DNA from: a virus
Taxonomy: Duplodnaviria > Caudoviricetes
Virus record (IMG/VR): IMGVR_UViG_3300033061_001635
Coordinates: 32,001-96,000 of that record
DNA: 64,000 bases
Direction: 5' to 3' (one strand)
A program made the translations under genes and the position numbers. The notes below the pieces were generated by a model. That model ran no database searches, was not told where the DNA came from, and saw nothing but the letters and a program-made list of their open reading frames with translations. Shown one piece after another: positions 9,467-49,925 of this stretch; the first letter of the stretch is position 1; every line of letters starts with the position of its first letter.

Positions 9467-9716
9467 TTTATTAGTATGGTGTGTTTATGGATTATTTGTT
9501 GGTAGTGTGGCCAAAGCAATTGTTCCAGGTGAAGAAAATTTTGGTTTTATAAAAACAGTTGCATTAGGTGTTGCTGGTTCATATATGGGAGGGGCGGTTT
9601 TGTATATGTTAGGTAAATACGAATCCTTATCTCCAGCAGGGTTATTTATGGGAGTAGCAGGAGCTATTCTCTCTCTTGTTTTATATAATAAGCTCCAGCA
9701 ACAGACCAAATCTTGA
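9459..9716 (+). CDS. GlsB/YeaQ/YmgE (transglycosylase-associated) family membrane protein
   Basis: W...GL..G..AKAIVPG....G...T..LGVAGS..GG pattern with three TM segments. Confidence 0.8.
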   Translation: MFNLLVWCVYGLFVGSVAKAIVPGEENFGFIKTVALGVAGSYMGGAVLYMLGKYESLSPAGLFMGVAGAILSLVLYNKLQQQTKS

Positions 9717-9752
9717 TCAAATAGCTTGAATGAAGCTTATAAGAAAAAATAT

Positions 9753-9780
9753 TTGACTAGCAGCAGAATTCTGCTATCAT
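9753..9780 (+). promoter_or_regulatory. Sigma70-like promoter with a palindrome in the spacer
   Basis: TTGACT-16 nt-TATCAT with a TGn extended -10. Perfect 14-bp palindrome AGCAGAATTCTGCT at 9762-9775. Confidence 0.55.
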
Positions 9781-9787
9781 ATGCTAT

Positions 9788-10270
9788 ATGAAAACAACAC
9801 CCCTCGCTAGACCATCATGGAACGATTATTTCTTAGGTCTTGCTAAAGTCATTTCGCAACGCAGTCACGATTCTCAAACACAGCACGGTTGTGTAATTAC
9901 AGATCAAAATAATAGAATATTGGGTGTTGGATATAATGGTTTTGCACGAGGCTTGGACGATGACCTGTTACCAACCACTCGTCCTGATAAATATCCGTGG
10001 ATGATACATGCAGAAAGAAACGCATTAAGTAATTGTGTTGTTAGACCAGACAACGGAGTAGCATATGTTACTGGCCAATGCTGTAATGATTGTATTATGG
10101 CATTATGGCAAGAAGGTGTCTCCACAGTCATCATGATGGATGATCATGGTACACATTTATTTGATGACAAAGCACAAAAACACTTTGATTCTTTTGTCAA
10201 AATGAGTCAAATCAATATTAGATACATTAAGCCAAACTTCAATTGGCTGAGACAAATACCCGGTGTATAA
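9788..10270 (+). CDS. dCMP deaminase
   Basis: WNDYFLGLA..ISQRS.D, GYNG, HAERNA and CxxC zinc ligands (CNDC). Confidence 0.9.
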   Translation: MKTTPLARPSWNDYFLGLAKVISQRSHDSQTQHGCVITDQNNRILGVGYNGFARGLDDDLLPTTRPDKYPWMIHAERNALSNCVVRPDNGVAYVTGQCCNDCIMALWQEGVSTVIMMDDHGTHLFDDKAQKHFDSFVKMSQINIRYIKPNFNWLRQIPGV

Positions 10271-10413
10271 TGAACTTACCAACAATAATATTTTATGGCA
10301 GTTTAATTTATTATTTTTATAATAGAGTTTATACTGAAGATTTATTAATGACAAATTTTTCTTTTCAAACCGCAATCATTATAGGCATCATTGCCATTTT
10401 AAATAGGAGATAA
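10270..10413 (+). CDS. Small two-TM membrane protein (47 aa), not in the ORF track
   Basis: TAATG-coupled ORF MNLPTIIFYGSLIYYFYNRVYTEDLLMTNFSFQTAIIIGIIAILNRR* fills the gap to nrdJ. Confidence 0.5.
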   Translation: MNLPTIIFYGSLIYYFYNRVYTEDLLMTNFSFQTAIIIGIIAILNRR

Positions 10414-10414
10414 T

Positions 10415-12604
10415 ATGTCTGCCCTTCAAGAACTTCAGAATTATACGTTTGTAAGTAAGTATGCTCGATGGATAGAAGATAAGAATCGCAGAGAAACCTG
10501 GAAAGAAGCTGTTGATCGCGTCAAAAATATGATGCATACCCAGTACCCAGATATCAAAGAAGATATTGATTGGGCATATGATATGATGTATAAGAAGAAG
10601 ATTCTTGGTAGCCAAAGAGCATTACAGTTCGGTGGCGAACCGATCCTCAAAAGACACGCTAAGATATACAACTGCACAAGTTCATATTGTGATCGACTCC
10701 GATTTTTCCAAGAGTGTTTCTGGCTACTCTTATGTGGTAGCGGAACAGGATTTAGTGTTCAAAAGCACCATGTTGCAAAATTACCAACATTAGAACATGA
10801 TATTCCTGATAATAACGAAGGAACAAAATATGTTATTGAAGACAGCATAGAAGGATGGGCAGATGCTCTTGGAGTTCTTCTTAGTTCTTACTTTAGTAAG
10901 CCAATTGAAGAATTCAAAATATACAAAAATACTTACGTTGTTTTTGACTATTCAAATATTAGACCCAAAGGATCATCATTAGCTAGTGGCGTAGGAAAAG
11001 CTCCAGGCTTTGAACCGCTGCAAAATGGATTAGAGAAAATCAGAACTCTACTAGATCGTTGTATTGCTAATGGTCAAAAGAAACTAAGACCAGTTGATGC
11101 TTATGATATTGTTATGCATAGTAGTGACGCTGTGTTGAGTGGTGGAGTTAGGCGTAGTGCTAGCCTTGCTTTATTCAGTCGTGATGACGAAGAAATGGCA
11201 AAAGCAAAAACAGGCAATTGGTACATAGATAATCCACAAAGAGCAAGAAGTAATAATTCTGCACTTCTACTTAAAAATGAAACAACATTTGAAGAATTTC
11301 AAGAATTGATGGAGAGTGTTAAAGAATTCGGAGAACCAGGATTTATTTGGAGTGACTCAACAGAAATGACATTCAATCCTTGCGTAGAGGTCGGAATGTG
11401 GCCAGTAGATGAAGAAACTGGAAAGAGCGGATGGCAAGGATGTAATCTATCTACTATCAACTGTTCATCAATTGAAGATGAAGATGATTTTTATGAAAGA
11501 TGCAAGGCTGCTGCTATTATAGGAACTCTACAAGCTGGATTCACCAAACTAGATTATCTTGGAGAGATCACTTGCAGAATCTTTGAAAGAGAAGCCCTAC
11601 TCGGAGTTTCCTTAACTGGAACAATGGAAAAGCATGATCTTATTCTTTCAGAAAAGGTTCTTCGTGCTGGAGCTAAAATTGCAGTTGAAACAAATAAAGA
11701 TCTTTCCAAGAAAATAAAAATTAATCAAGCAGCAAGAGTAACATGCTTAAAGCCAGAAGGAACAAGTTCTAGTATGCTTGGAACAAGCTCTGGTATTCAC
11801 CCGCATCACGCCAAACGCTATATAAGACACGTACAGGCCAATATTTTAGAAGCACCGTACCAGCACTTCAAAAAACTAAACCCACAAGCCTGTGAAAAAT
11901 CTAGTTGGTCAGCAAATAATACAGATGAGGTAATTAAGTTTCCAATAGAGGTTCCAGATGGAGCCAAATTAAAGAACCAATTACCAGCAGTAGAAATGTT
12001 ATCTATTGTTAAAGATACTCAAAAAAACTGGGTTCAAAGTGGAAAAAATAGATCATTATGCACTCAAGAATATCTAAGTCATAATGTCAGTAATACCGTA
12101 ACTGTGAAACCAGATGAATGGGACGATGTTACTAAATATATTTATGATAACCGTAAATACTTTGCTGGTATAAGTTTAATTCCACAGAGCGGAGATAAAG
12201 ATTATACCCAAGCCCCATTCACAACAGTTTATACTAGTCGTGAAATAGTTAAAGAATATGGAGATGCTGCATTATGGTGCTCTGGACTAATCCAATTAGG
12301 CTTGAATGCTTTTAATAATAATCTATGGGCGGCTTGTGATTATGTTAGTATGAACCAAGCAAAAGAAAATGATAGTCAAGATAAATTATTATTTATTACC
12401 AAAATGAAAAATTTTGCTGGTAAATATTTTGATAGTGACCTTAAGAGACTAACATATTGTATGAAGGATGTTTATAATTGGAAAATCTATTGCGATCTAT
12501 ATAACGGATTTAAAAAAGTAGACTATACACAACTTCTGGAAAATGAAGATAATACTGTGGGGATTGAGGAAATAAGTTGTGCTGGTGGCGCCTGTTTATT
12601 ATAA
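10415..12604 (+). CDS. nrdJ: Class II (adenosylcobalamin-dependent) ribonucleotide reductase, monomeric RTPR type
   Basis: YNC, SGGVRRSA, FNPCVE (thiyl Cys), GCNL, KPEGTSS and C-terminal CAGGAC. No NrdB gene nearby. Confidence 0.9.
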   Translation: MSALQELQNYTFVSKYARWIEDKNRRETWKEAVDRVKNMMHTQYPDIKEDIDWAYDMMYKKKILGSQRALQFGGEPILKRHAKIYNCTSSYCDRLRFFQECFWLLLCGSGTGFSVQKHHVAKLPTLEHDIPDNNEGTKYVIEDSIEGWADALGVLLSSYFSKPIEEFKIYKNTYVVFDYSNIRPKGSSLASGVGKAPGFEPLQNGLEKIRTLLDRCIANGQKKLRPVDAYDIVMHSSDAVLSGGVRRSASLALFSRDDEEMAKAKTGNWYIDNPQRARSNNSALLLKNETTFEEFQELMESVKEFGEPGFIWSDSTEMTFNPCVEVGMWPVDEETGKSGWQGCNLSTINCSSIEDEDDFYERCKAAAIIGTLQAGFTKLDYLGEITCRIFEREALLGVSLTGTMEKHDLILSEKVLRAGAKIAVETNKDLSKKIKINQAARVTCLKPEGTSSSMLGTSSGIHPHHAKRYIRHVQANILEAPYQHFKKLNPQACEKSSWSANNTDEVIKFPIEVPDGAKLKNQLPAVEMLSIVKDTQKNWVQSGKNRSLCTQEYLSHNVSNTVTVKPDEWDDVTKYIYDNRKYFAGISLIPQSGDKDYTQAPFTTVYTSREIVKEYGDAALWCSGLIQLGLNAFNNNLWAACDYVSMNQAKENDSQDKLLFITKMKNFAGKYFDSDLKRLTYCMKDVYNWKIYCDLYNGFKKVDYTQLLENEDNTVGIEEISCAGGACLL

Positions 12605-18567: not shown

Positions 18568-20040
18568 ATGATTTTATGTGACCCGTCCGCAGAACGCGCT
18601 ATATTAAGTGGAATTTTGAAATACGGAGAGGATGCCTATTTGGATATTGCGGATATTATCCAGGAATCTTCTTTTACAATTGACAGTAATCAAATAATAT
18701 TTAAGTGTTTAAAAAACATTTGTGAAAAAGAACCAAAGCCGAACATTGATCTTGCGTCAGTGTACTCTTCGGCTCAAGAGCTTAATTTATCACATATATT
18801 GTCTAAAAAAGAAGAAACCCAACACCTAAAAGCTATTTTTGATTTTCCGGTACATTTAGAAAATATTAGAAAATTTGCATCCAAGATTAAAAAATTAGAG
18901 ATAGCTAGACTCTTACACAAGGAAATGGAGGATGTGCAAGAAAAGCTATTGGATGTTACTGGTTCAGAGTCAATATCTGCCATATTGGGTATTGCTGAAG
19001 AAAAGATATTCAATTTTACAAACGCACTTTCTGCAGAGAGCGATTCTGCTCCTAAGTTTATAGCAGAGAGTATAGATAATTACATAGAGTTTCTACAAAG
19101 TAATAAAGTAGATCAAATAGGAATACCTACTGGATTTCCAGCATACGATCAGGCGATAGGTGGAGGTTTAAGAAAAGGAACAGTTAATGTTATAGCGGCA
19201 CGACCAAAAGTAGGAAAAACGCTGCTCTCTGATAATATTGGATACTATATTGCGAGCAAGTTACAAATTCCTGTATTAAACATGGATACAGAAATGACCA
19301 AAGAAGATCATATCCATAGAATTTTGGCTATGTCATCAGAAATAGAAATATCAAAGATCGAGACAGGCAAGTTCACGGATACCCCAAGTTCTGCAACCAA
19401 AATAAAACAGGCAATAGACGAACTTAAAAATAGTAAGTTATATCATAAAAGCATAGCAGGAAAACCATTCGAGGAACAACTGTCTATTATGCGAAGATGG
19501 ATATCTAAAGAAGTTGGACTTAATGATGACGGAACAGCAAAAGACTGTGTTATTATTTATGACTATTTAAAACTAATGGATAGTACAGGAATAAACCAAG
19601 ATATGAAAGAATATCAGGTTCTTGGCTTTATGATGACAAGTTTACATAATTTTGCTATACAATATAAAGTCCCAATATTATCTTTTATACAATTAAATAG
19701 AGACGGTATCACAAAAGAAAGCACTGATACTGCGAGTGGATCAGATAGAATTATTTGGCTATGTAGTAATTTTACAATATTCAAAAGAAAAAGTGACGAA
19801 GAAATTGCTGAGGATGGGCAAGATGCGGGTAATAGGAAATTGGTTCCATTAATCAGTCGCCACGGCGGTGGATTAGATGACAATGATTATATTAATTGTC
19901 ACATGAAGGGCTGGTGTGCTAAAATAACAGAGGGACAAACCAGATTAGAACTACTACATGGATCAAAAAAGCAAAAAGGCGGATTTATAATCAATGACAA
20001 TAATGAAGATGAAGAAAAACAAGACATACCATTCGTATGA
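18568..20040 (+). CDS. dnaB: Replicative DNA helicase (DnaB family)
   Basis: AERAILSG, GIPTGF..YD, AARPKVGKT, DTEM, IYDYLKLM and QLNR. Confidence 0.92.
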   Translation: MILCDPSAERAILSGILKYGEDAYLDIADIIQESSFTIDSNQIIFKCLKNICEKEPKPNIDLASVYSSAQELNLSHILSKKEETQHLKAIFDFPVHLENIRKFASKIKKLEIARLLHKEMEDVQEKLLDVTGSESISAILGIAEEKIFNFTNALSAESDSAPKFIAESIDNYIEFLQSNKVDQIGIPTGFPAYDQAIGGGLRKGTVNVIAARPKVGKTLLSDNIGYYIASKLQIPVLNMDTEMTKEDHIHRILAMSSEIEISKIETGKFTDTPSSATKIKQAIDELKNSKLYHKSIAGKPFEEQLSIMRRWISKEVGLNDDGTAKDCVIIYDYLKLMDSTGINQDMKEYQVLGFMMTSLHNFAIQYKVPILSFIQLNRDGITKESTDTASGSDRIIWLCSNFTIFKRKSDEEIAEDGQDAGNRKLVPLISRHGGGLDDNDYINCHMKGWCAKITEGQTRLELLHGSKKQKGGFIINDNNEDEEKQDIPFV

Positions 20041-21172
20041 TCAATATCAACTTAAGAATTTATCAGACTTAGTGTGTGATGATATCGAGAATTTATTAAA
20101 TTCTTTAGGTATAGAATCATATAAAATATTTGATAAAATGGTCACTATGAGTTGCCCAATTCATGGTGGAGATAATGATTCTGCACTGAATCTATACTAC
20201 AAGGGAGACTCATATAGAGGAAACTGGAAATGTAGAACTCACCAGTGTGAGAATATTTTTAAGTCATCAATTATTGGTTTTATAAGAGGATGCTTGTCTA
20301 AAGATGGCGGATGGAATAAAGAAGGTGATGACATGGTGTCTTTTAAAGACGCTATAGACTTTGCTATTAAATTTTCTAATCACGACCCGGTCAATGATAA
20401 ACAAACGAGAAAAGTAAAAGAAAAAAATACGTTTGTTAATACTATAAAAAATATTTCTATAGACGTTAGTAATAAACCAAATGAAGTTGTTGTTCCAAGG
20501 AATTTGGTCATTAAGGCGCTAGACATACCATCACAATATTTCTTAGACAGAGGATTTTCTAAAGAAGTATTAATAAAGTACGACGTAGGAGACTGTATCA
20601 ATTCATCAAAAGAAATGAATAATAGAGCAGTTGTGCCGGTATATGATCAAAATATGAGGGGGATGATAGGCTGCACTGGCAGAAGCATACACGATAAATG
20701 TACAAACTGTAATTCTTTTCACGATATTAATGAAAAGTGTCCTAATGATAATGAAAAATGGCTTAGTTCCAAATGGAGACATAGTAAAAATTTTAAGACC
20801 CAGGAACATCTATATAATTATTGGTTTGCTAAAAAACATATCTTAGCATCAAAAACTGTGGTTATAGTCGAAAGCCCTGGCAATGTTTGGAGATTAGAAG
20901 AAGCAGGGATACATAATAGTATAGCAATATTTGGTTCGTCACTCGGATACAAACAAAAGGCCTTATTAGATATATCTGGAGCTATGAATATAGTAACAAT
21001 AATGGATAACGATAAGGCTGGTAAAGATGCAGCAAAACAAATCGAAGACAAATGTGGAAGAATATATAATATAAAACACATAGAGATTAATGCAAATGAT
21101 ATTGCAGAAATGAGCATTGATGATATAGTAACAACCATATCCCCACAGATAAAGGAATACGAATTATGTTAG
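19994..21172 (+). CDS. dnaG: DNA primase (zinc finger plus TOPRIM)
   Basis: CPIHGGDN...WKCRTHQC, YFLDRG, GCTGR, VES and MDNDKAG. The exact start is uncertain. Confidence 0.85.
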   Translation: MTIMKMKKNKTYHSYDQYQLKNLSDLVCDDIENLLNSLGIESYKIFDKMVTMSCPIHGGDNDSALNLYYKGDSYRGNWKCRTHQCENIFKSSIIGFIRGCLSKDGGWNKEGDDMVSFKDAIDFAIKFSNHDPVNDKQTRKVKEKNTFVNTIKNISIDVSNKPNEVVVPRNLVIKALDIPSQYFLDRGFSKEVLIKYDVGDCINSSKEMNNRAVVPVYDQNMRGMIGCTGRSIHDKCTNCNSFHDINEKCPNDNEKWLSSKWRHSKNFKTQEHLYNYWFAKKHILASKTVVIVESPGNVWRLEEAGIHNSIAIFGSSLGYKQKALLDISGAMNIVTIMDNDKAGKDAAKQIEDKCGRIYNIKHIEINANDIAEMSIDDIVTTISPQIKEYELC

Positions 21173-21924
21173 TTTTAGGTATATCTGGCAAAAAACAGTC
21201 GGGTAAAACCACAGCAGGAAATTTTATTCTATCGCTATATCTTGCCAAACTAAATGCGAGTGAAAAACTTTATATAGATAATGATGGAAATATACTAATA
21301 TCAGATTTGTGTGGTGATAAATCATATGAGGGTATTTTTTCTATACAATCTATATTATCAAGAGAAATAATTTCTAGTGATATTTTATTATTTTTAGAGA
21401 AATTACAGAATGAAATAAAAATCTATAATTTTGCAGATATATTAAAAACAGACATATGCATGAATATACTAGGCTTGACTTATGAACAGTGCTATGGATC
21501 AGATGAAAATAAAAATGAATTAACGTCTGTTAAGTGGCCGTCAGAAATAGCCAATGATAAATCTAGTAAATTTATGACAGCGAGAGAAGTTATGCAATAT
21601 GTGGGTACGGATATCTTTAGAAAGATGGATACTAATGTTTGGGTAAAGTCAACCATTAATAAAATACTTAAAGAAAATCCTGAGTTAGCAATTATTACAG
21701 ATTGTCGATTTCCAAATGAAGTAGAAGCAATAAAAAATATTGGTGGAAAAGTATTGAGATTAACTAGGAGTCCATTTTTATCTAATCATATTAGTGAGAC
21801 AGTATTAGATAAAGAAAACTATGATTGGAATAATTTTGATCATGTTATTAATAACGAAAATAATAATCTATATGATCAATTCTCTGAGCTTAAAACCATT
21901 TTAGAAAAACTATTAAATCTATGA
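21166..21924 (+). CDS. Deoxynucleoside monophosphate kinase (T4 gp1-like)
   Basis: GISGKKQSGKTT, FADILK, REVMQYVGTD.FR and ITDCRFPNE. Confidence 0.85.
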   Translation: MLVLGISGKKQSGKTTAGNFILSLYLAKLNASEKLYIDNDGNILISDLCGDKSYEGIFSIQSILSREIISSDILLFLEKLQNEIKIYNFADILKTDICMNILGLTYEQCYGSDENKNELTSVKWPSEIANDKSSKFMTAREVMQYVGTDIFRKMDTNVWVKSTINKILKENPELAIITDCRFPNEVEAIKNIGGKVLRLTRSPFLSNHISETVLDKENYDWNNFDHVINNENNNLYDQFSELKTILEKLLNL

Positions 21925-22961
21925 TTATTACATACTTTCGAAGCAGTTCTTATAATACCCACAATATGTGTGAACAACAGTATTTTGGAGAATATGTGTT
22001 GGGATGGAGGGGTTTGTCTGGGCAGAAAGCAGATAAAGGAACTATCACTCATAAAATATTAGAAATATTAGCTGTTATTAAAAAAGCGCAGCAAGATCAG
22101 CAAGATACTATTAATGACGATTTGATCGGAGAAGTTAGTGTTCATAATTATGATTTAGATAATATAATAGATCAAGTGTACTCATACTACACTTCTAATG
22201 CACAACATCATAAGTGGTCACCGAAAGACCATAAAGATTGTAAAAATTGGGTCTATAAAGCTATAGAATTTAATAATGGAATGTTTGATCCAAGAAATCG
22301 AAACATACTATGTCCAGAGCAGCATTTTGATTTTGAAATTAAGAAATCTTGGGCTAAATATAGTTATGATACTAATGGAGAAAAATTAGAGGGTAATTTA
22401 GCTTTAAAGGGCACTATTGATCTGATAACACTAGTTAATGATTCTACCATAGAGATTATAGACTGGAAAACTGGTCGTAGATTAGACTGGGCAACAGGAG
22501 AAGAAAAAACTCAAGAAAAACTAGAAAAAGATCCTCAGTTAAAAATATATCATTACGCAATAAAACATCTATATCCTCATATTAAAAATATAATATTCTC
22601 AATATATTTTATTAATGATGGAGGTCCATTTTCTATATGTTTTCATGATTCTGATCTCAGTTCTACTGAAGATATGTTGAGACAAAAATTTGAAGCAGTT
22701 AGGAGCACCAAAAAACCGCGACTTAATAAAAGCTGGATGTGCAGTAAATTATGTCATTTTGGCAAAACAACATTTGAAGGAACTCATATACAGCCGATAG
22801 AAGAATATAGAGATGGACAAGTATGCAAAATTGGTCAAATAATGACAAAGTGTGAACAAATAAAGCATGATCTTGACCTTTATGGTATCGACACTACAAT
22901 GGGTTTGTATAAAAACAAAAATCACTCATTTGGAAGTTACAAGGCCCCAGGATCGATATGA
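21921..22961 (+). CDS. PD-(D/E)XK exonuclease, Cas4/AddB-like with probable Fe-S cysteines
   Basis: N-terminal MCEQ, GTITH, GTIDL, IIDWKTG, QLKIY and C-terminal CSKLC...C. Confidence 0.8.
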   Translation: MIITYFRSSSYNTHNMCEQQYFGEYVLGWRGLSGQKADKGTITHKILEILAVIKKAQQDQQDTINDDLIGEVSVHNYDLDNIIDQVYSYYTSNAQHHKWSPKDHKDCKNWVYKAIEFNNGMFDPRNRNILCPEQHFDFEIKKSWAKYSYDTNGEKLEGNLALKGTIDLITLVNDSTIEIIDWKTGRRLDWATGEEKTQEKLEKDPQLKIYHYAIKHLYPHIKNIIFSIYFINDGGPFSICFHDSDLSSTEDMLRQKFEAVRSTKKPRLNKSWMCSKLCHFGKTTFEGTHIQPIEEYRDGQVCKIGQIMTKCEQIKHDLDLYGIDTTMGLYKNKNHSFGSYKAPGSI

Positions 22962-24829
22962 AACAAAAAACTTATTCTGTTTTACATGCACATTCTCACT
23001 ATAGTCTATTGGACGGATTAAGCAAGCCTAGTCAAATAGCCGAAAGATGCTTTAATGCTGGAATTAAAACCTGTGCAATAACTGATCATGGAACTATTTC
23101 CGGATGTGTTCAGTTTTATCAGGCGATGAAGGCCAAAAAGATTAAACCAATATTAGGTTGTGAACTTTACATACCTAAAAATGACTCATTTGTTAAAGAA
23201 AAAGAAAACAATAATCTGAGTCACTTCCTGGTTCTTGCTAAAAATTTAGCAGGATGGAATACTCTTGTGAAAATCATATCTGAAACAAATAGAATAGACA
23301 ACTTTTATCATAAGCCAAGAATCAGTTTTGATAGACTGGCCCCTATGTTGGATGGAAATATTATAGGCTTTTGTGGTCATTTAGGATCAAGTATATCAGA
23401 CTTGGTTGAGGAAAATCCTGATAACTATACTGATAAGGCAATATCTTTTATAGATCATATGAAAGAAATATTTGGAAAAGATAATTTCTTTCTAGAAGCT
23501 CAACTCATGGATCAGGAACTGAATCCTAAACAAAAAGAAATGACAGATATAATGAGAGAATTATCTGTTAAGACTAAAACCAAAATAATAGCCACCCCAG
23601 ATGCTCACTATTGTGAAAGAAAAGATGCTATTGATCAAAGAATTTTATTATGTAATAATCTTAAGACAACTTTGATAGATATAAATAAGAAACTCTTAGC
23701 CAACCAGGATGTGCCAATGAGTTGCTTTTTTAAATCGGACAATTATCATATTCCAGATCCAGAAGAAATGATGGAGTGGCATACTAAGGAAGAAATTGAA
23801 AATACTTTATATGTAGATTCAATATGCGAGGAGTATTCTATTCTTAACAAGCCATTACTTCCCGCTTTCGAATGCCCAAATAATTCTAATCCAGAAGAAT
23901 ATCTGAGACAATTATGTAGAGATGGTTGGAGAGAAAAGATAATGAATGATATTCCAGAATCTGAACATACAAAATATGCAGATAGAGTAAAATTAGAATT
24001 AGATATTTTACAAAAAGCTGGATTATCTAGTTACTTTCTTATAGTGCAAGATATTGTAAACTATGTCAAGAAGAGTGGATGGCTTCCCGGACCAGGAAGA
24101 GGAAGTGCTGCAGGGTGTTTGGTTTCCTATTTAATTGGTATTACTCAAATTGATCCGATCAAATATGATTTACTCTTTGAGAGATTTTATAATGAGGGCC
24201 GTAACACCGCAGATCATATCTCCATGCCAGATATTGATGTTGACGTTCCTATTACAAAAAGAGAACAAATTATAGAATATATTAAGAATAAATACGGTAT
24301 AGATAAAGTTAGTCAAATGATCACTTTTAATACTATGAAAGGTCGTGGCGCCTTAAAAGAAGTATTGAGAGTATATGATAATATTTCTTTCGAAGAGACA
24401 AACCGTATAACCAAGTTTATACCAGATGAGGCCAAAATTGCAGACGAACTACAAGAAATGAAGGAAGATACTGGAGAAGCTTCAATTATTCGTTGGGCGT
24501 TAGAAAATAATGTTGACAAACTCAAAGAATGGTGCTATATATCTAGTGACGGTTCATTGGCCGGACCGTTGGCAAAAAGATTCGAACAGGCTATTAGACT
24601 AGAAGGAACAAAATCTAATCAATCTAAACACGCGGCCGGTGTAGTAATTAGCAGCAAGAGCCTTGGCAGTGTATGCCCTATGGTTTATGATAATAAAAAC
24701 AAGCAGTCCATCGCGGGCATGGAAATGCAAGACTTAGAAAGTTTGGGTCTGATTAAATTTGATATTTTGGGAGTTGCTATGTTAGACAAAATCATGACAA
24801 TATCAGAAATTTTATCAAAAGGAGAATAA
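22958..24829 (+). CDS. dnaE: DNA polymerase III alpha, N-terminal half (PHP plus palm)
   Basis: HAHSHYSLLDG, TDHG, GCELY, DAHY, GPGRGSAAG, LLFERF, PDIDVD, KHAAG and KFDILG. Confidence 0.92.
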   Translation: MKQKTYSVLHAHSHYSLLDGLSKPSQIAERCFNAGIKTCAITDHGTISGCVQFYQAMKAKKIKPILGCELYIPKNDSFVKEKENNNLSHFLVLAKNLAGWNTLVKIISETNRIDNFYHKPRISFDRLAPMLDGNIIGFCGHLGSSISDLVEENPDNYTDKAISFIDHMKEIFGKDNFFLEAQLMDQELNPKQKEMTDIMRELSVKTKTKIIATPDAHYCERKDAIDQRILLCNNLKTTLIDINKKLLANQDVPMSCFFKSDNYHIPDPEEMMEWHTKEEIENTLYVDSICEEYSILNKPLLPAFECPNNSNPEEYLRQLCRDGWREKIMNDIPESEHTKYADRVKLELDILQKAGLSSYFLIVQDIVNYVKKSGWLPGPGRGSAAGCLVSYLIGITQIDPIKYDLLFERFYNEGRNTADHISMPDIDVDVPITKREQIIEYIKNKYGIDKVSQMITFNTMKGRGALKEVLRVYDNISFEETNRITKFIPDEAKIADELQEMKEDTGEASIIRWALENNVDKLKEWCYISSDGSLAGPLAKRFEQAIRLEGTKSNQSKHAAGVVISSKSLGSVCPMVYDNKNKQSIAGMEMQDLESLGLIKFDILGVAMLDKIMTISEILSKGE

Positions 24830-24831
24830 AG

Positions 24832-25011
24832 ATGGAGAAAAAGTTTGCAGATTTAGCTGTTGGTGAAAAATTTAGTGTTAACGGTACGGAATACATTAAG
24901 TCAGACGAAGTTAGGATTAGCTGTTGCAGATCAGTGAATTGTTATGCAACTGCTGATTCTTCTCAAAAAGGACATTTTCCTGGTGACACAGTAGTAGTGG
25001 TAAATGGCTAA
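24832..25011 (+). CDS. Small Cys-containing protein (59 aa), not in the ORF track
   Basis: AAGGAG RBS; MEKKFADLAVGEKFSVNGTEYIKSDEVRISCCRSVNCYATADSSQKGHFPGDTVVVVNG*. Overlaps the exonuclease start. Confidence 0.7.
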   Translation: MEKKFADLAVGEKFSVNGTEYIKSDEVRISCCRSVNCYATADSSQKGHFPGDTVVVVNG

Positions 25012-25699
25012 TACACAAAAAATTTGCGTTTTCGATTTGGAAACAGATGGTGCCAATCCAGATTTGTGCAGTCCTGTGCAAATAGCTGCGATTATGGTAG
25101 ATCCATTCAAATTGGAAATAATTAAAAATTCGGAATTCAATATTAATGTTAAACCATTAGCAATAGAAAATAATCCTGAATACTCATATGAAGATTCAGA
25201 CGTATTAGATTTTCATGCAAAGGTTAGAGGCTCTACAAAAGAAAGCGTTTTAGAGTCTTGGAAAACTTATCAAAAGCAAGAACATGGCTGGGGAATGTTT
25301 GTATCTTACCTAGATATGTATCATATTCGTAGTCATAGCAAAAAATCCTGCTTCTCAGCACCAATCGCAGCCGGATACAATATAAACAGATTTGATTTGC
25401 GTATTATAGAAAAATTAAGTACAAAGTACAATAATCTTAATAAAGAAGGAAGATCATCTTTATTTTATCCAAGAGATGTAATTGATATTATGAACTTAGT
25501 TTTTTATTGGTTTGAAGGCAATAACGAGCTTAAAAATTATACTCTTGATAACTTAAGAGATTATCTTGGTATAGATAAAACAGGATCACACGACGCTCTA
25601 AAAGATGTGAAAGATACTGCACAAATTTTAATTAGATTTTTAAAATTGCACAGGAATATTGCTAACAAAGTTAAGTTTAAATCATCATTCATTGGATAA
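25004..25699 (+). CDS. DEDDh 3'-5' exonuclease (DnaQ/epsilon-like)
   Basis: ExoI VFDLETDG, ExoII GYNINRFD and ExoIII HDALKD. Confidence 0.88.
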   Translation: MANTQKICVFDLETDGANPDLCSPVQIAAIMVDPFKLEIIKNSEFNINVKPLAIENNPEYSYEDSDVLDFHAKVRGSTKESVLESWKTYQKQEHGWGMFVSYLDMYHIRSHSKKSCFSAPIAAGYNINRFDLRIIEKLSTKYNNLNKEGRSSLFYPRDVIDIMNLVFYWFEGNNELKNYTLDNLRDYLGIDKTGSHDALKDVKDTAQILIRFLKLHRNIANKVKFKSSFIG

Positions 25700-25710
25700 T
25701 AGTATTTATA

Positions 25711-27336
25711 ATGGCAGAGATATTTGCATTTGATTGTGGTTGTCAATTCAATATTATTGAAAACAATTCTAATTTTCCAAAAATAGAGTTTTCTCCAAAA
25801 ATCTCAAATATTAATTTGGAGTGTACAAAAACATGGGAATTAATATCATCAGGTAATACAAAGGGGTGTTTTCAGTTAGAATCTAGGCTTGGTCAAACCA
25901 TGGCAAGAAAACTAAAGCCACAAAATATACAGCAATTATCTGGGCTAATTAGTATTCTTAGACCAGGATGCTTGGAAGCTATGAGAGATGGTAAAAGCGT
26001 TTCTAATCATTATATAGATAAAAAAAATGGATTAGAGTCTATCGATTACTTTCATCCGGCATTAGAACCCATTCTTAAAGATACATATTCAGAAATGATA
26101 TATCAAGAACAGGCTATGTCTATAGCTAAAGAGTTGGCTGGCTTTAATCTTAAAGAAGCAGATGATCTTAGAAAGGCTATTGGCAAAAAACAAGCAGATA
26201 AAATGGCAAAGGTAAAAGAAAAGTTTATAGAGGGAGCTCATAAAAAGGGGCTTATAAACACAAGTGAAGCAGAACAAATATTTGAATGGGTGGAAAAAAG
26301 TCAAAGATATTTATTTAATGCTAGTCATTCTATTAGCTATGCTATGAATGCTTATCTATCTGCCTATGCTAAAGCCCACTTTCCAAAAATCTTTTTTGCT
26401 TCTTATCTCAGATTTGCAAAAGACAAAATAGACCCCCAACAAGAGATTAAAGAGTTGGTGCGTAATGCCGTGGAAATGGACATCAATGTTAGCATTCCTG
26501 ATTTTAGGAATCTAAATTCTTTATTTATTCTTAAGGACAAAAAAATATATTTTGGATTAACAGACATAAAAGGAGTTGGACAGTCAGTATATAATAAAAT
26601 AATTGAATTAAGTAAAAATGTAGACATAAATAACATGTCCTGGTTAAAAATGTTATGTCATATATTATTAAACATAAACTCTACAGCAACTAAGGCCCTA
26701 ATAAGCTGTGGTGCCTTTGATTATTATAAAAAACATAGAACAGAATTATTATTTGAATATGATATATGCAGCAAATTAACCAAAAAAGAATTATCTGAAT
26801 TTGTCAACTATATTGACTCAAATGATAAAGCCAATATGATTAATGCATTAAAGCATATACTAGAAAATACAAAACTAACTAAAAATAGAAGAGAAACTAT
26901 TGAGAATTGTATATACTTATTGGGCAATCCTCCCTATTCATTAACAGACAAGATAGAATGGCTTGCAGATTCTGAGAATGGTCTATTAGGAGCAAACATA
27001 ACATGCTCCAAACTAGATATATACGACGTCGGATCAACGAACTGCAATTGTAAAACTTTTAAAACATCATTATTAAAAGACAATATTATTATTGTTGGAG
27101 AAATTGCTAATATAAATATTACAAAAACTAAAACTGGTAAAAATCCAGGATTAGAGATGGCATTTCTAACAATAGAAGATCAATACGGCACTCTTGATAC
27201 GGTCGTATTTTTCCCAGAAGCATTTAGTAAATATAAAACTCATTTATTTATCGATAATATCTTAGTATTTGTTGGAAATAAAAGCAAATCCAAAGATGGT
27301 TTGATCGTTGAAAAATGTTTTATTCCGTCATCTTGA
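25711..27336 (+). CDS. dnaE: DNA polymerase III alpha, C-terminal half (fingers, HhH, OB)
   Basis: GCFQLES, LRPG, IYQEQ, AGF...EADDLRKAIGKK, YLFNASHS, KAHFP, FGLTDIKGVG and MAFLTIEDQYG. Confidence 0.92.
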   Translation: MAEIFAFDCGCQFNIIENNSNFPKIEFSPKISNINLECTKTWELISSGNTKGCFQLESRLGQTMARKLKPQNIQQLSGLISILRPGCLEAMRDGKSVSNHYIDKKNGLESIDYFHPALEPILKDTYSEMIYQEQAMSIAKELAGFNLKEADDLRKAIGKKQADKMAKVKEKFIEGAHKKGLINTSEAEQIFEWVEKSQRYLFNASHSISYAMNAYLSAYAKAHFPKIFFASYLRFAKDKIDPQQEIKELVRNAVEMDINVSIPDFRNLNSLFILKDKKIYFGLTDIKGVGQSVYNKIIELSKNVDINNMSWLKMLCHILLNINSTATKALISCGAFDYYKKHRTELLFEYDICSKLTKKELSEFVNYIDSNDKANMINALKHILENTKLTKNRRETIENCIYLLGNPPYSLTDKIEWLADSENGLLGANITCSKLDIYDVGSTNCNCKTFKTSLLKDNIIIVGEIANINITKTKTGKNPGLEMAFLTIEDQYGTLDTVVFFPEAFSKYKTHLFIDNILVFVGNKSKSKDGLIVEKCFIPSS

Positions 27337-27361
27337 CATGTGCGTGTGGTCAGGATATAAT
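27333..27361 (+). promoter_or_regulatory. Consensus sigma70 promoter for ssb
   Basis: Perfect TTGACA-17 nt-TATAAT. Confidence 0.85.
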
Positions 27362-27398
27362 AGTTAGATTGAGGTTTTTATAAACAAGGAGTTTGATT

Positions 27399-27770
27399 AT
27401 GAATATAACTTTGCTAAAAGGTAATCTTGCTAGGGATCCGGAACTAAGAACAGTGAACACTGGAGGCAAGCAAACGTCTGTAGTTAATTTTACAGTTGCT
27501 GTCTCCAGAGATTATACAAAAGCCAATGGAGAAAAGGATAAGATTACATCTTTTATTAATTGCGAGGCTTGGGACAGTGGTGCTGAAATGATTTCGGAAT
27601 CCTTTAAAAAGGGGGATTTAGTAATGGTCGAAGGATCATTAAGAAATGATTCGTGGGAGAAGGATGGAGTTAAGCACAGCAGTCTGAAGGTTAGAGTAAA
27701 TAACTTTTCTAAGATTACTAGGCTAAGCAAAAATACTAAACAAGAAACTAGTGAGCCTGTTGCTTTCTAA
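27399..27770 (+). CDS. ssb: Single-stranded DNA-binding protein
   Basis: GNLARDPELR, FINCEAW, KGDLVMVEGSL and C-terminal PVAF; AAGGAG RBS. Confidence 0.93.
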   Translation: MNITLLKGNLARDPELRTVNTGGKQTSVVNFTVAVSRDYTKANGEKDKITSFINCEAWDSGAEMISESFKKGDLVMVEGSLRNDSWEKDGVKHSSLKVRVNNFSKITRLSKNTKQETSEPVAF

Positions 27771-27796
27771 TTTATAACTATTTATACCATGAAGAT

Positions 27797-27825
27797 GGGG
27801 GGTGGCAAAAACACCCCCCGTTTTT
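27797..27825 (+). terminator. Rho-independent terminator after ssb
   Basis: GGGGGGTG-gcaaaaa-CACCCCCC followed by gTTTTT. Confidence 0.85.
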
Positions 27826-27830
27826 ATACT

Positions 27831-29492
27831 ATGCCAAAACTAAAAGTACTAATGTGTTCAGAAGCCAGTTTTATACACTCTGGTTTCGGTATATATACCA
27901 AAGAACTCTTATCAAGACTACATGCTACTCAAAAATATGAAATAGCAGAATTTGCATCTTACGGATTTGTTAATGATCCAAGAGACGTTAATATTCATTG
28001 GAAATATTATGCAAATGCTGTTAGAGATGACGATTACAGACATAAGGAATATGTATCCAGAGGAGACAATCAATTCGGCCGATGGAGATTTGAGAAAGTA
28101 TTACTGGATTTCAAACCAGATGTTGTTATTGATATCAGAGACTATTGGATGACAGCATATCAAAGAACATCTCCTTTAAGAAAATTTTTCCATTGGATTT
28201 TAATGCCAACAGTGGACTCATGCCCCCAGCAAGAAGAATGGATTGATACATTTTTAAATGCCAATGCAATATTTACGTATTCAGATTGGGGCGCTGAGGT
28301 TCTAAATAAACAGTCATCTGGTAAAATCAATTATATAGATACTGCGTCTCCGGGCATTGACTGTGATGTTTTTAAGCCCAAAAACAGGAATAAAATCAGA
28401 GCAAACTTTGATATCCCGCAGGACAGCATCGTTGTTGGTTCTGTTATGAGAAACCAAAAAAGAAAACTAATACCAGAGTTATTAACTACATTCAAAAAGG
28501 TATTAGATAATCTAAAAGAAAATAATCAAGAAAATCTATCTAAAAAATTATTTCTTTATCTGCACACAAGTTATCCTGATATGGGTTGGGACATTCCAGA
28601 ACTACTAAGACAATCTGGATTATCTAATAAGGTACTATTCACGTATTTATGCAAAAACTGTAGAGACGTCACATGTTCTAAGTTTCAGGGTCCAAATAAA
28701 ATATGTACCAAATGTCATAGTAAGACATGTAATTTACCATCTGTTACTGACGGGGTAACCTCAGAAACTCTAAGTAATATATACAATATATTTGATTTAT
28801 ATGTACAATATTCTATATGCGAGGGATTCGGGATGCCACAGGTTGAGGCTGGTGCTTGCGGCGTTCCTATTGCAACCGTTAATTATAGTGCAATGTGTGA
28901 TATTGTAAATAAATTAAATGCATATCCTATTAAGATAAAATCAGAATTTAAAGAATTAGAGACAAAAGCTATTAGAGTATATCCAGATAATGATGATTTA
29001 GCTAAATATATATTGGATTTTATTAAACAACCAGATTCCATTCTTAATAAGAAAAGATTTGAAATACATGAATTAACGCATAAGCATTATGATTGGACAA
29101 ATATTGCAAAAAAGTGGGAGAACTATTTAGATAAACTAGATAATTCTGGCTATAGAGCAAATTGGAATAATTCAAATTTTCTAGAACCAATACAAAAAAT
29201 GCCGGACAGTAACATAACAAATAATTTTGATAATATATTGATGTTACTGAATAATAATCTAAAAGATATTTCTCTAATTGGTAGTCAAAAAATATTAGAA
29301 CTATTGAATAATGCAGACTACGGCTTTATTCAAAATGGACCAACTAATCTAGGGCCATTTAGTTTTAAAGAAGTATATGAATATCTAAAAAATATTGTAG
29401 ATAATAATAATCAAGCAAAATCAGCACAGGATAGTAATGTGTCATTTGACGAAGACTTTATTGCTTATTCTAACATGAAAAGAAACTCATAA
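27831..29492 (+). CDS. GT-B fold glycosyltransferase (GT4-like) with a Cys-rich insertion
   Basis: SGFGIY, FKPDVVID, RNQKRK and the signature EGFGMPQVEAGACGVP. Start reassigned to ATG 27831, downstream of the terminator. Confidence 0.88.
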   Translation: MPKLKVLMCSEASFIHSGFGIYTKELLSRLHATQKYEIAEFASYGFVNDPRDVNIHWKYYANAVRDDDYRHKEYVSRGDNQFGRWRFEKVLLDFKPDVVIDIRDYWMTAYQRTSPLRKFFHWILMPTVDSCPQQEEWIDTFLNANAIFTYSDWGAEVLNKQSSGKINYIDTASPGIDCDVFKPKNRNKIRANFDIPQDSIVVGSVMRNQKRKLIPELLTTFKKVLDNLKENNQENLSKKLFLYLHTSYPDMGWDIPELLRQSGLSNKVLFTYLCKNCRDVTCSKFQGPNKICTKCHSKTCNLPSVTDGVTSETLSNIYNIFDLYVQYSICEGFGMPQVEAGACGVPIATVNYSAMCDIVNKLNAYPIKIKSEFKELETKAIRVYPDNDDLAKYILDFIKQPDSILNKKRFEIHELTHKHYDWTNIAKKWENYLDKLDNSGYRANWNNSNFLEPIQKMPDSNITNNFDNILMLLNNNLKDISLIGSQKILELLNNADYGFIQNGPTNLGPFSFKEVYEYLKNIVDNNNQAKSAQDSNVSFDEDFIAYSNMKRNS

Positions 29493-31779: not shown

Positions 31780-32466
31780 ATGATTCATGGTTTGATATTA
31801 GTACCAGAAATAACAAAAGGAATGAAATCATTAGGATCAAAAGCCTTATTGCAAATTAAAAAAAAAATTTCTGTACTAGAATATCAGATAGACTCAATAC
31901 TAGATATAGATAAAAATATTAAAATCACTATCTGTTCTGGATTTGAACATGAAAAAATATCATTCCTATTAAACAATAAATACTCAAATAATATAAATTA
32001 TGTATACAATCCAGACTATAAAAATAGTAACCAGGGCCATTCGATAAAATTATTTTTTGATACTATATACAAAAAGTCTGATAATGTATTAATATTAAAT
32101 AATGGAATTATATTAAAGAAAAAATGTTTGAATAAATCAATGCTTGGCAATGAATCTAAAATATTTATCTTAAATAAGAAAAAAGAAGAATTTAAATTAG
32201 GTTGTTCATCATCCAAAAATTTAGACTATATTTTTTATGATTTACCAGAAAGTTGGTCGGAATGTATTTATTTAAACCAAATAAGTATCGAAGTTTTACA
32301 GAAAATTATTGAGCACTCGTCAATTAATCAAATGTATCTTTTTGAAATTATAAACCAGGTAATAAGTCATAAAAATATTACTATAGAAAAAGAATATATT
32401 GATAAAAAAATGATTATGAAAGTAAACACACCAAAAGACATACTTAAGGCTAGATATTATATATGA
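31780..32466 (+). CDS. Divergent sugar/choline-phosphate nucleotidyltransferase-like protein
   Basis: ILVPEITKGMKSLGSKALL...LEYQI, GFEHEKI and NPDYKNSNQGHSI follow the NTP_transferase/LicC layout with key residues changed. Confidence 0.55.
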   Translation: MIHGLILVPEITKGMKSLGSKALLQIKKKISVLEYQIDSILDIDKNIKITICSGFEHEKISFLLNNKYSNNINYVYNPDYKNSNQGHSIKLFFDTIYKKSDNVLILNNGIILKKKCLNKSMLGNESKIFILNKKKEEFKLGCSSSKNLDYIFYDLPESWSECIYLNQISIEVLQKIIEHSSINQMYLFEIINQVISHKNITIEKEYIDKKMIMKVNTPKDILKARYYI

Positions 32467-43430: not shown

Positions 43431-46400
43431 TTATTGTTTTATAGAAGTTAATGTCCATTGACTGTCTATAAAAGAAAAAACTCCTATTTCATTCGTTGGA
43501 GTAGCAAATCCAAGGGGGTTAACATAGTTTACAGTAGATGTTGGAATAACATTACTTCTACGACTGGGAGTATATAATAAATTCAATAACACTTGATTTG
43601 AGCTTATGATTTTCCCCGTTGTTGTTATAACAGGCTTGCTCACTGGCTCATAAAATCCTGTTTTTGAATTATATCTACAGAGCAGTTTTGTTCCTTTTGG
43701 AGCACAGTATCCTGTTTTATCTTTAATATATATTAATCTCCTATATCCTTGGAGTAAAGGCTCGCTACTATATTCTATGTCATCAAAGAATCCTCTTGTC
43801 ACATATGTTTCATTAAAGTCTGGTTGTTTTATTAAATCCTCTTCTAATACAGCATAGATCATTCTGTATATATATTTTTTCTTTGTTTTTTTAGCAATAA
43901 ATTCATCTAAAGTAATAATATCATTAGAATTAGTAATTATATAGGGCGGATCAATTTCTTCTGCTCCTCCTCCTCCAGACCACACCCTTCTTTCTTCATC
44001 CCAGAACAAATCAATAGGACCGACCTTCCATAAGTCTGGTCTTTCGGCCCAATTTAGATAAAATTCATCTAATTTAACTTTATCTGACCATTTACCACCA
44101 CTAAATGTTTGAGTTTTGCTAATGATACTGCCTTTATATCCAACAAATGGTCCATCAGCACCAGGATCAGTTCCTCCATCAACATTATAATTGTCTTTAA
44201 TTTCAAATGAAGTAACTATAGTGTCTTTGCTAAACGTAGCAGGCAGGTAGGTTAATTCCTCTTCGTTGATAGTTTTAACATAATCAGCATTATTATATGT
44301 AAATTGCTCGCCATTAGAAAGATCTTTATAAGCCTTTGCTGTTCCATTAACTTTGATCAGTTGAAATCTTTTTGGTCTTCCATACAGATCAACAGCCACA
44401 GGCTCATCAGCAGCATTAGGAACAGGATATCCATCAGCATCATATCCCCAAGAATGTAATACTAATGGGCCTCTCAATCCAAAAAATCTTTGATTATTTT
44501 CATGTACGATTGTATTTGAAGGGTCTCCTCTTTTTTGTCTTTGACGATATAATCCACTATCTTTACTATAATAATCTAAATTATAAGGACTTGTGCTCTT
44601 ATTAATATTTTTGCTAATTTCTAAATAATATCCTTGTTTGTTTGGAGGAACTGATCCTCTACCAACAATTTCTATAGAATGTCTTGATCTGTCTCGGAAT
44701 ACTCGTCCTCCAGGAATTGAAGACGTTAAATCACCATGTTTTTTGTCTGGATGAACGCCGCTATAATTTTGGATATTAGCATTTTTGAATTCTCCATGAG
44801 GAACCACTATAGGATTAAGAGTAATAAGATTGATTGGAATTGTTTCATTATTTCCAACAGAAAGTTTAGCATTAAGTCTATTAGACCAATCCGTACATTT
44901 ATCACATGCTACACTCAGATTGGGCACAATAGTTTTTGTAGCAGAACCATACTGAGATATTTTGAATTTTCTAACCTTAGTACCTTTGCAAAATGGACAA
45001 AATGCAGTATTGTGTAAAGAATAAGCAAAAGTTGAATTTTTAAATGTAGGATAAAAAGATATTGGAGATAATAATCCATCTAAACTCATTGCTGATTGCA
45101 TTCCATAATCTTTTTGCAACTGATTTTCTACTTCTTTTCTTTCATATAGCCCAACAGTTGTTGTTATTCTACCAATATTCTTCAATAGTGGGGATGACGT
45201 TCCAGCGGTTAACGAAAAATTATTGTTACTATCTAAACCAGGATCTCCGCTAGATCTTGTTAGTTCCCATGAGGTTACATTATTTGATCTTGTTCCAAGA
45301 GTATTAAGGGCTGGACTATTAGCATAAGAAAAATCCTCTATATAATCCGGAGTTCTGGTAGGTTCGTGGATTAATGGTGATGCTTGACCTATTAATACTG
45401 TTGTGGGGCTCCATCCAAATAACTTGGATGCAAAATCATTGCTTCCAAATTGAGCTTGATTTAATCTTTCTTGTAGTAGATTCTCTCTTTCTTTATTCAT
45501 CATGTCATTAACATCTTGACGAACTTTAGCTATTTGTTTTCCTCTATATAAATTAGCTCTATTAATTTTCTTTATTCTATCAGTTTCTATTTTATTAAAA
45601 GCTCCTAGTTTTCGAGTATATGTTCTAAAAGTATAAGTACATGATATTCCTTGTTGTCCAACGCTAGTCTGTATGGATGTGACAATTGGTCCTTCGACAA
45701 AATTAGGACGTTGTCTTAAGTCTATAAGTCTATATTGATAATCAAAAGAACCATCCACACTGTTAGGATATGATATATACTGAACACCAGGTATATAATT
45801 TAAATTTATAGATGGAATAGTTGCTAATCCTTTAACGTCTTTTCCTGTAACTTCGCAATCTTTAATTTCTGCGGGGAGATATTTAACTCCAGTATTGGCA
45901 TTAATGATATTAAAATTTCCACCAAGATCCCACAGGGGCAATCCTGGCATTTCTAATTGGGCAGTTTCCAAAACTGATTGATAATTGGCTCGTCCTTCTA
46001 TCTCATTAAATGCTGCAATATCCATATAATGCATTCCGCCATAATTCCACGGAACAAATTCTTCATTAAAATCGATATCAACAGACGTGATCAGATTGTT
46101 CAAAGCCTGTTTAGCTTTCTCTATAGTGATTGCTGTTGTATTCGTTCTGGTGCAACTAACTAGAGATCCGTTAGCAACAGTTTGTTTTATTGTAAAACCT
46201 GTCGGGAACAGTCCAGTTGTTCCAGGAAAACATTGATTAAGAGGATAATTTGTCCAGGGTCCGTATGTGAATTGATTTGATTTAATTGGTATACCAGCAA
46301 AAAATGGATGGGCCGCTTTAGGAGCAAGCTCAACATTGTTGGCGGTATGATTAGAAGAAACAGTATATAATCCCAAAAAATAAGGATTTGCAACATCAGA

Positions 46401-49922: not shown

Positions 49923-49925
49923 ATA

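Follow-up and report, generated by a model that had tools for sequence, protein, structure and literature searches.

A phage DNA polymerase III alpha subunit encoded as two separate chains with a proofreading exonuclease gene between them

The alpha subunit of DNA polymerase III (Pol III alpha, or DnaE) is regarded as obligately single-chain unless an intein rejoins its parts. How, then, does a phage replicate its DNA when its dnaE is broken in two beside the active site and nothing is found to mend it? This question is raised by a stretch of 64,000 nucleotides (nt) from an uncultured phage (Duplodnaviria; Caudoviricetes), positions 32,001 to 96,000 of the IMG/VR record IMGVR_UViG_3300033061_001635, which is called the window below. 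The phage genome, that is the whole 175,133-bp record, is 100% complete according to CheckV. The sole replicative polymerase of this phage is probably a non-covalent heteromer of an N-terminal half (DnaE-N) and a C-terminal half (DnaE-C). A non-covalent complex appears most likely because the halves are encoded separately with nothing to splice them.

Two polymerase halves around an exonuclease gene

The four open reading frames (ORFs) of the block, together with a leader segment of the last one, are as follows (aa, amino acids; HhH, helix-hairpin-helix; dN/dS, ratio of non-synonymous to synonymous substitution rates).

22958-24829, plus strand: DnaE-N, the PHP, palm and thumb half of Pol III alpha, 623 aa (ORF, Pfam, phrog_405, alignment with Taq Pol III alpha)
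24832-25011, plus strand: micro-protein, 59 aa, predicted SH3/KOW-like all-beta barrel (profile, fold prediction, dN/dS)
25004-25699, plus strand: DEDDh 3'-5' exonuclease, DnaQ/epsilon-like, 231 aa (RNase_T match, invariant residues)
25711-27336, plus strand: DnaE-C, the fingers, HhH and OB half of Pol III alpha, 541 aa (Pfam, profile, Taq alignment)
25711-25785, plus strand: leader of DnaE-C, ~25 aa, present in split forms only, with the motif F-D-C-G-C-x-F (CGC at 25735-25743; alignments)

A preliminary description, made from the sequence alone, had read the DnaE motifs as running in order across two ORFs of 623 and 541 aa with a 59-aa ORF and an exonuclease between them. These positions and sizes were confirmed exactly, and three comparisons agree on the order of the motifs. 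In Pfam, DnaE-N matches PHP (125 bits) and DNA_pol3_alpha (253 bits) above the cut-offs, and DnaE-C matches DNA_pol3_finger (152 bits) and HHH_6 (40 bits); its OB match of 23.2 bits lies under the cut-off of 27. On phrog_405, a full-length phage polymerase profile of 1190 positions, DnaE-N covers positions 40-612 and DnaE-C covers 622-1052. When aligned with Taq Pol III alpha, DnaE-N matches residues 7-626 and DnaE-C resumes at residue 648.

All three polymerase aspartates are found in DnaE-N (D425, D427, and D602, matching PDIDTD and KMDFLG of the Taq enzyme), and this triad is invariant in 57 sequences. The break falls 21 residues past the third catalytic Asp, which, going by the domain limits of the E. 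coli structure, is presumably the palm/fingers boundary. DnaE-N also has nine PHP metal ligands (H10, H12, D19, H44, E69, H89, H141, D215, and H217). Seven of them, D19 through H217, are invariant among relatives, and the few exceptions at H10 and H12 resemble artefacts of start-codon calling. The ligand set proposed earlier therefore stands as present and conserved, except in its CGH segment, where the ligand is H141 (aligned with a Cys of the Taq enzyme) and C139 is variable.

The exonuclease matches PF00929 (RNase_T) with 43.5 bits against a cut-off of 24 and has motifs Exo I-III in the H-x4-D form. Its residues D11, E13, D131, H196, and D201 are invariant among relatives. Furthermore, its C-terminal tail is conserved and reads K-x-K-F-K-x-x-F here (window 25652-25699). 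A tail of the form K-x-(K/N)-F-(K/R/E)-x-x-(F/L) is common to split and contiguous lineages (L081, L082, and L088). This tail is a candidate polymerase-docking peptide. Operon coupling and the conserved tail are the features observed that bear on whether the exonuclease may bind the polymerase and excise 3' mismatches. The earlier suggestion that the replicase may have two proofreading activities is still possible because the PHP and DEDDh residues are both intact.

The ORFs of the block are spaced by +2, -8, and +11 nt and alternate between two reading frames, and the exonuclease start overlaps the micro-ORF stop by 8 nt. The two DnaE halves are in different frames with 881 nt between them, and no single DnaE chain of 1100-1200 aa is present. 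Both the DnaE palm and the exonuclease are single-copy in the whole genome. No family-A or family-B polymerase and no second DnaE was found in the complete 175-kb genome. Because this genome is complete and has no other polymerase, the split DnaE is the only recognisable replicative polymerase of the phage.

How would such an enzyme be put together? In the proposed model, DnaE-N, carrying the PHP proofreading/metal site, the catalytic palm, and the thumb, and DnaE-C would be made as two chains, each translated on its own within a single, tightly coupled operon. The fingers of DnaE-C would bind the incoming deoxynucleoside triphosphate and the template, so that the halves would rebuild one active site over the palm/fingers boundary. 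As partners, the DEDDh exonuclease and the 59-aa barrel protein would be co-expressed with the halves. In this model, the assembly of the subunits, their activity, how the split originated, and what the small protein does are inferred. One observation weighs against the model: neither a beta clamp (PF00712) nor a clamp loader (PF13177) was detected genome-wide, despite the Pol III-type replicase. Processivity could come from a host clamp or be intrinsic to the enzyme.

Conservation of the break and the question of rejoining

The relatives compared were the best 80 (67-97% identity) of 157 confirmed IMG/VR relatives. In all 71 loci that span the block, the order is deoxynucleoside monophosphate (dNMP) kinase, PD-(D/E)XK nuclease, DnaE-N, micro-ORF, exonuclease, DnaE-C, and single-stranded DNA-binding protein (SSB); the other nine end inside the block. 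The split and the gene order are thus kept in relatives, a point that the preliminary description had left to be checked. The spacing of the four genes in relatives is mostly -20 to +11 nt, and the micro-ORF and exonuclease overlap by 8 nt in most loci. A protein search gave 8000 matches, the top 120 of which are all ~606-628 aa long and consist of PHP and palm only. Among GenBank phages, no match above 35% identity was found. Pairwise dN/dS is 0.02-0.07 for both DnaE halves, 0.005-0.09 for the exonuclease, and 0.05-0.28 for the micro-ORF. In other words, all four genes are under purifying selection.

Could the halves be rejoined after transcription or translation by an unrecognised intein, an intron, trans-splicing, or translational bypass? 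Such rejoining has precedents, as split inteins rejoin cyanobacterial DnaE and three metagenomic dnaE loci (PMC2677866), and one relative (L034) has a genuine split intein at another site of DnaE-C. However, the junction surplus over the contiguous enzyme in the Taq alignments is only ~25 residues and therefore too small for an intein; the N parts of split inteins alone are reported to have 88-105 residues (PMC2677866). Relatives whose DnaE-C has no leader carry essentially zero surplus residues at the junction. No match to the Hint, Intein_splicing, or PT-HINT families of Pfam was found in either half at E<=0.01, and the identical search detected the intein of L034, which served as a positive control. 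For introns, an Rfam scan of 22000-28000 at E<=1 gave only two chance eukaryotic small-RNA matches. The 881-nt spacer is nearly all coding, filled by two genes in other frames that are under purifying selection, and in a second split lineage, described below, ~6 kb comprising seven unrelated genes lie between the halves. Repeats beside 24830/25710 occur only at chance level and show no mobile-element footprint. A free-standing homing endonuclease is not present between the halves, where the intervening genes encode the RNase_T-family exonuclease and the 59-aa barrel protein. These observations make rejoining very improbable. They also bear out the earlier remark that neither junction shows an intein, and they lend no support to an intron.

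An assembly artefact or a recent pseudogenisation of a contiguous dnaE is harder still to credit. Contiguous relatives do exist at 45-57% identity, but 71 independent contigs share the structure, as do thousands of proteins of ~620 aa that come from many samples, and an apparent additional break in L087 is only a run of Ns in the scaffold. Misassembly and decay, which the preliminary description had named as ways in which its reading could fail, are contradicted: the order is identical in the independent contigs, selection is strong, and the catalytic residues are invariant. A different possibility is that the products are no longer a polymerase and have been repurposed (for example, DnaE-N as a PHP nuclease), with a host polymerase replicating the phage. 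The missing clamp and clamp loader would fit this. However, repurposing is improbable given that the Asp triad of DnaE-N and the fingers of DnaE-C are conserved at low dN/dS over deep divergence, that the two halves always co-occur, that helicase, primase, and SSB genes surround them, and that the complete genome has no other polymerase. The absence of a splicing element, the conserved order, the selection, and the intact residues together favor the non-covalent two-chain replicase that the preliminary description had proposed, its assembly being probable.

The remaining features of the locus are a ribosome-binding signal and the neighboring replication genes.

24819-24824, plus strand: Shine-Dalgarno sequence AAGGAG for the micro-ORF, within the last codons of DnaE-N, with the ATG at 24832 7 nt on (sequence)
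18568-22961, plus strand: DnaB-type helicase, primase, dNMP kinase, and PD-(D/E)XK nuclease, upstream (Pfam, conserved synteny)
27393-27770, plus strand: SSB, directly downstream of DnaE-C (Pfam, conserved synteny)

Several relatives carry further interruptions of this gene. At L034:8669-11682, DnaE-C is broken again in the manner of a fractured gene, which leaves DnaE in three pieces. Part 1 of this DnaE-C ends in an N-intein (Hint matches, residues 231-308), a free-standing LAGLIDADG-type endonuclease gene lies between the parts (9660-10577), and part 2 opens with a C-intein-like segment ending in ...ATSN|S. One relative only, L070, has an HNH endonuclease gene of 231 aa (phrog_374, E 8.5e-24) inserted after DnaE-N and before the micro-ORF (L070:7872-8567). 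It appears that the DnaE junction tolerates or attracts homing-type genes. In Bacillus phage vB_BceM_WH1 (L089, LC597490.1 194353-198551), DnaE is annotated as three coding sequences, gp235-237, with unannotated stretches of 724 and 403 nt between them. The interruption here is of another kind, and the gaps perhaps hold introns or endonuclease genes.

A second split lineage, the small proteins, and the origin of the break

A second split lineage (lineage II) comprises L088 and five contigs that are 78-82% identical to it (L091, L093, L094, L096, and L098). Here, DnaE-N is followed by a gene of 75-76 aa and then by a ~6-kb cassette of six metabolic genes. After the cassette come the exonuclease, DnaE-C, and SSB in L088 and four contigs, that is in all but L098, which does not extend that far. 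The cassette (L088:12135-18036) encodes a glyoxalase, an aldehyde dehydrogenase, and DDAH/amidinotransferase-like, class-III aminotransferase, UDP-glucose-dehydrogenase-like, and saccharopine-dehydrogenase-like proteins; it is possibly a phage-borne amino-acid or polyamine pathway. L095 (69% identity) is a compact form of lineage II without the cassette. The break site is identical in both split lineages, the N half ending in ...L-x-x-G-(E/K), plus or minus a residue or two.

The nearest contiguous DnaE proteins (P0121-P0144; L081, L082, and L090), at the 45-57% identity given above, are single chains of 1124-1146 aa. An IMG/VR search with one of them, P0128, gave no matches. These contiguous sisters keep the replication module of DnaB, primase, dNMP kinase, PD-(D/E)XK nuclease, DnaE, SSB, and glycosyltransferases. 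In fused group 1 (L081, L082, and the contig of P0123), an orthologous exonuclease of 221-227 aa (tblastn E 1e-40 to 6e-44) lies downstream, after SSB and the first glycosyltransferase and before the second. In fused group 2 (the contig of P0139, and L090), a 230-aa exonuclease lies directly upstream of the contiguous dnaE. In L090, the exonuclease gene and dnaE share 4 nt where the one ends and the other starts, and a preceding 83-aa gene overlaps the exonuclease by 8 nt. The sister lineages thus hold the orders small-exo-dnaE, dnaE...exo, and N-small-exo-C. Because the position of the exonuclease differs among lineages, the proofreader gene must have moved around dnaE in this phage group.

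How did the split arise? The orthologue of the exonuclease is a stand-alone gene elsewhere in the sisters, and the split therefore appears to have arisen by the block of small gene and exonuclease swapping places with the 5' part of dnaE. Duplication and then reciprocal loss would be a simple way of getting from small-exo-dnaE to N-small-exo-C. The trees complicate this account. Trees of the N half, of the C half, and of both concatenated recover the main split clade as monophyletic and place L088 as sister to fused group 2. A single clade of all split forms was rejected by an approximately unbiased test (log-likelihood difference 89.6, p 1.4e-33), in which the split group was named after inspection of the tree. 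Because the split lineages stand apart on the tree, their common break site and leader would have to be explained by convergence or by re-fusions, which counts against the proposed origin and leaves it incomplete. There were either two fissions at a uniquely permissive site or one older fission after which contiguous genes were re-formed.

The small proteins differ between the two split lineages. In the micro-protein of the main lineage, F14, C31, C32, and V55 are invariant in 52 distinct sequences, and the Cys31-Cys32 doublet (24922-24927) is also found in distant family members. Its predicted fold is an all-beta barrel of five strands, with a predicted local distance difference test score (pLDDT) of 94. 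It has no Pfam match. Fold searches returned only generic SH3/KOW/Tudor-like structures (Foldseek E >= 0.14; Z <= 4.9). When 1.84 billion representatives were searched with a profile of this family, 141 clusters were found, nearly all made up of free-standing proteins 55-70 aa long. Contigs were fetched for three distant members, and in each the micro gene immediately follows a DnaE-N half or the end of one; the DnaE-N is 602 and 619 aa long where complete, and the distant micro genes overlap the next gene. A hidden Markov model (HMM) of the family had no match in the fused loci L081, L082, and L090. The lineage II protein, by comparison, is homologous to the 83-aa product of fused group 2 (BLASTP E 1e-11), has a predicted alpha-beta4-alpha fold (pLDDT 91), and has generic fold matches only (Z <= 6.7). 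In the ESM Atlas, all matches were to unnamed viral clusters.

Three identities for the small proteins were considered and rejected. Homology of the 76-aa protein to the micro-protein has a hhalign probability of 0.2-0.4%, and the predicted folds are different. A theta (HolE/HOT) identity of the micro-protein is contradicted by the absence of a Pfam match and by five predicted beta strands against a helical theta. Descent of the micro-protein from the DnaE OB domain by duplication and degeneration has a hhalign probability of 0.2%. In addition, there is a weak match (HMM E ~4e-4) between the micro-protein's first beta-hairpin, at profile positions 3-24, and 44271-44336 on the minus strand, within a giant tail-region ORF of 2,164 aa (43434-49925). 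The hairpin's motif of 22-27 residues is also present in repeated form in several other large proteins that are unrelated (P0275 and P0300). The match in the tail protein lacks the Cys-Cys part and is therefore a short common motif rather than domain homology.

The cysteines suggest a possible means of holding the halves together. The leader (Y/F)-x-F-D-C-G-C-x-F of the C half is common to both split lineages. Its C9, G10, and C11 are invariant in 38 of 42 DnaE-C sequences and absent in the other four. The leaderless members are L062, L069, L073, L075, and L078 in the main lineage and L095 in lineage II. None of the contiguous relatives examined has the CGC leader, no contiguous DnaE among P0121-P0156 has a CGC segment as a loop, and a leader-region search of long proteins gave no contiguous DnaE with CGC, which is weak evidence. 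In lineage II, the small protein carries Cys-Cys, along with further cysteines, only in the company of the leader; in L095, which is leaderless, and in L090, which is fused, Cys-Asp stands in its place. Because Cys-Cys and CGC co-vary in lineage II, they point to an intermolecular Cys4 metal site in which the small protein and DnaE-C would clasp the complex. Such a clasp is tentative and rather doubtful, and two observations speak against it: the L062 subclade lacks the CGC leader but still keeps the Cys-Cys doublet, and vicinal cysteines are unusual as co-ligands of one metal. It is likewise unlikely that DnaE was split twice at the same site, each time enclosing the proofreader and each time gaining a CxC leader and an unrelated Cys-Cys-bearing small protein as a clasp.

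An alternative role for the 59-aa protein is that of a theta-like accessory of the exonuclease, in which the Cys-Cys doublet would be structural or redox-related. This role is possible without being probable. It would suit the 8-nt overlap of the micro-ORF with the exonuclease start in most loci, the same overlap of the small gene that precedes the exonuclease in fused group 2, and the persistence of the doublet where the leader is absent. However, the micro family is found in split arrangements only and never with the exonuclease of the fused relatives, and the lineage II small gene stays beside DnaE-N although the 6-kb cassette parts it from the exonuclease. The contrast between the all-beta fold and helical theta and the restriction of the lineage II doublet to proteins accompanied by the leader also do not favor an accessory of the exonuclease.

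Comparison with known systems

No description of this split-DnaE arrangement was found in the literature searched, and the surveys of viral and bacterial C-family polymerases that were consulted make no mention of it. What is new is a full-length, sole, intein-free two-chain DnaE with a proofreader gene nested in the break, and this arrangement is real and widespread. A very large and abundant group of aquatic phages apparently runs replication with a two-chain Pol III alpha. The split beside the active site is a natural, evolution-tested split site of a C-family polymerase that could aid engineering and studies of communication between palm and fingers. The locus is also a case of a proofreader gene nested inside a polymerase gene, and it lends itself to the study of gene fission, with intermediate orders kept in sister lineages. 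If the Cys clasp is real, it would be a new assembly principle, and a clasp evolved twice would mean that C-family replicases can be built in a manner not known before.

E. coli alpha is a single chain with a degenerate PHP domain. The E. coli Pol III core (alpha-epsilon-theta) likewise combines a C-family polymerase with a separate DEDDh proofreader and a very small third subunit. However, theta is helical and the micro-protein is predicted to be an all-beta barrel, and the exonuclease here is without the long C-terminal tail of epsilon. Intein-free splits are known from family-B polymerases, among them gp43A/B of an Aeromonas phage. In phage PhiKZ, gp82 and gp50 form an intein-free family-B polymerase that is split in the palm and makes a stable complex according to cryo-electron microscopy (PMC13648687). 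The PhiKZ enzyme likewise consists of two separately encoded chains, but it belongs to family B rather than C and has no proofreader gene nested in the break. For group 2.2 jumbo phages, Iyer et al. (2021) predicted a two-protein minimal Pol III alpha module (PMC7824862). That module is without PHP and other domains, has its two genes at distant places, and occurs alongside a family-B polymerase, whereas here a full-length DnaE with PHP, HhH, and OB domains is the sole polymerase, is encoded in one operon, and has halves that flank the exonuclease gene.

A parallel in gene layout is found in the split DnaE of cyanobacteria and the fractured genes of metagenomes, in which dnaE is likewise in pieces and, among the fractured genes, an ORF lies between the pieces at one locus (PMC2677866). 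Split inteins and homing endonucleases are present in each of the three fractured dnaE genes described by Dassa et al. (2009), who also described an intein-less fractured SbcD-like gene that likewise has inserted regions beside its break (PMC2677866). The phage locus differs from fractured dnaE in that it has no intein, it holds a proofreading exonuclease and a small conserved protein between the halves, and it is broken at another site.

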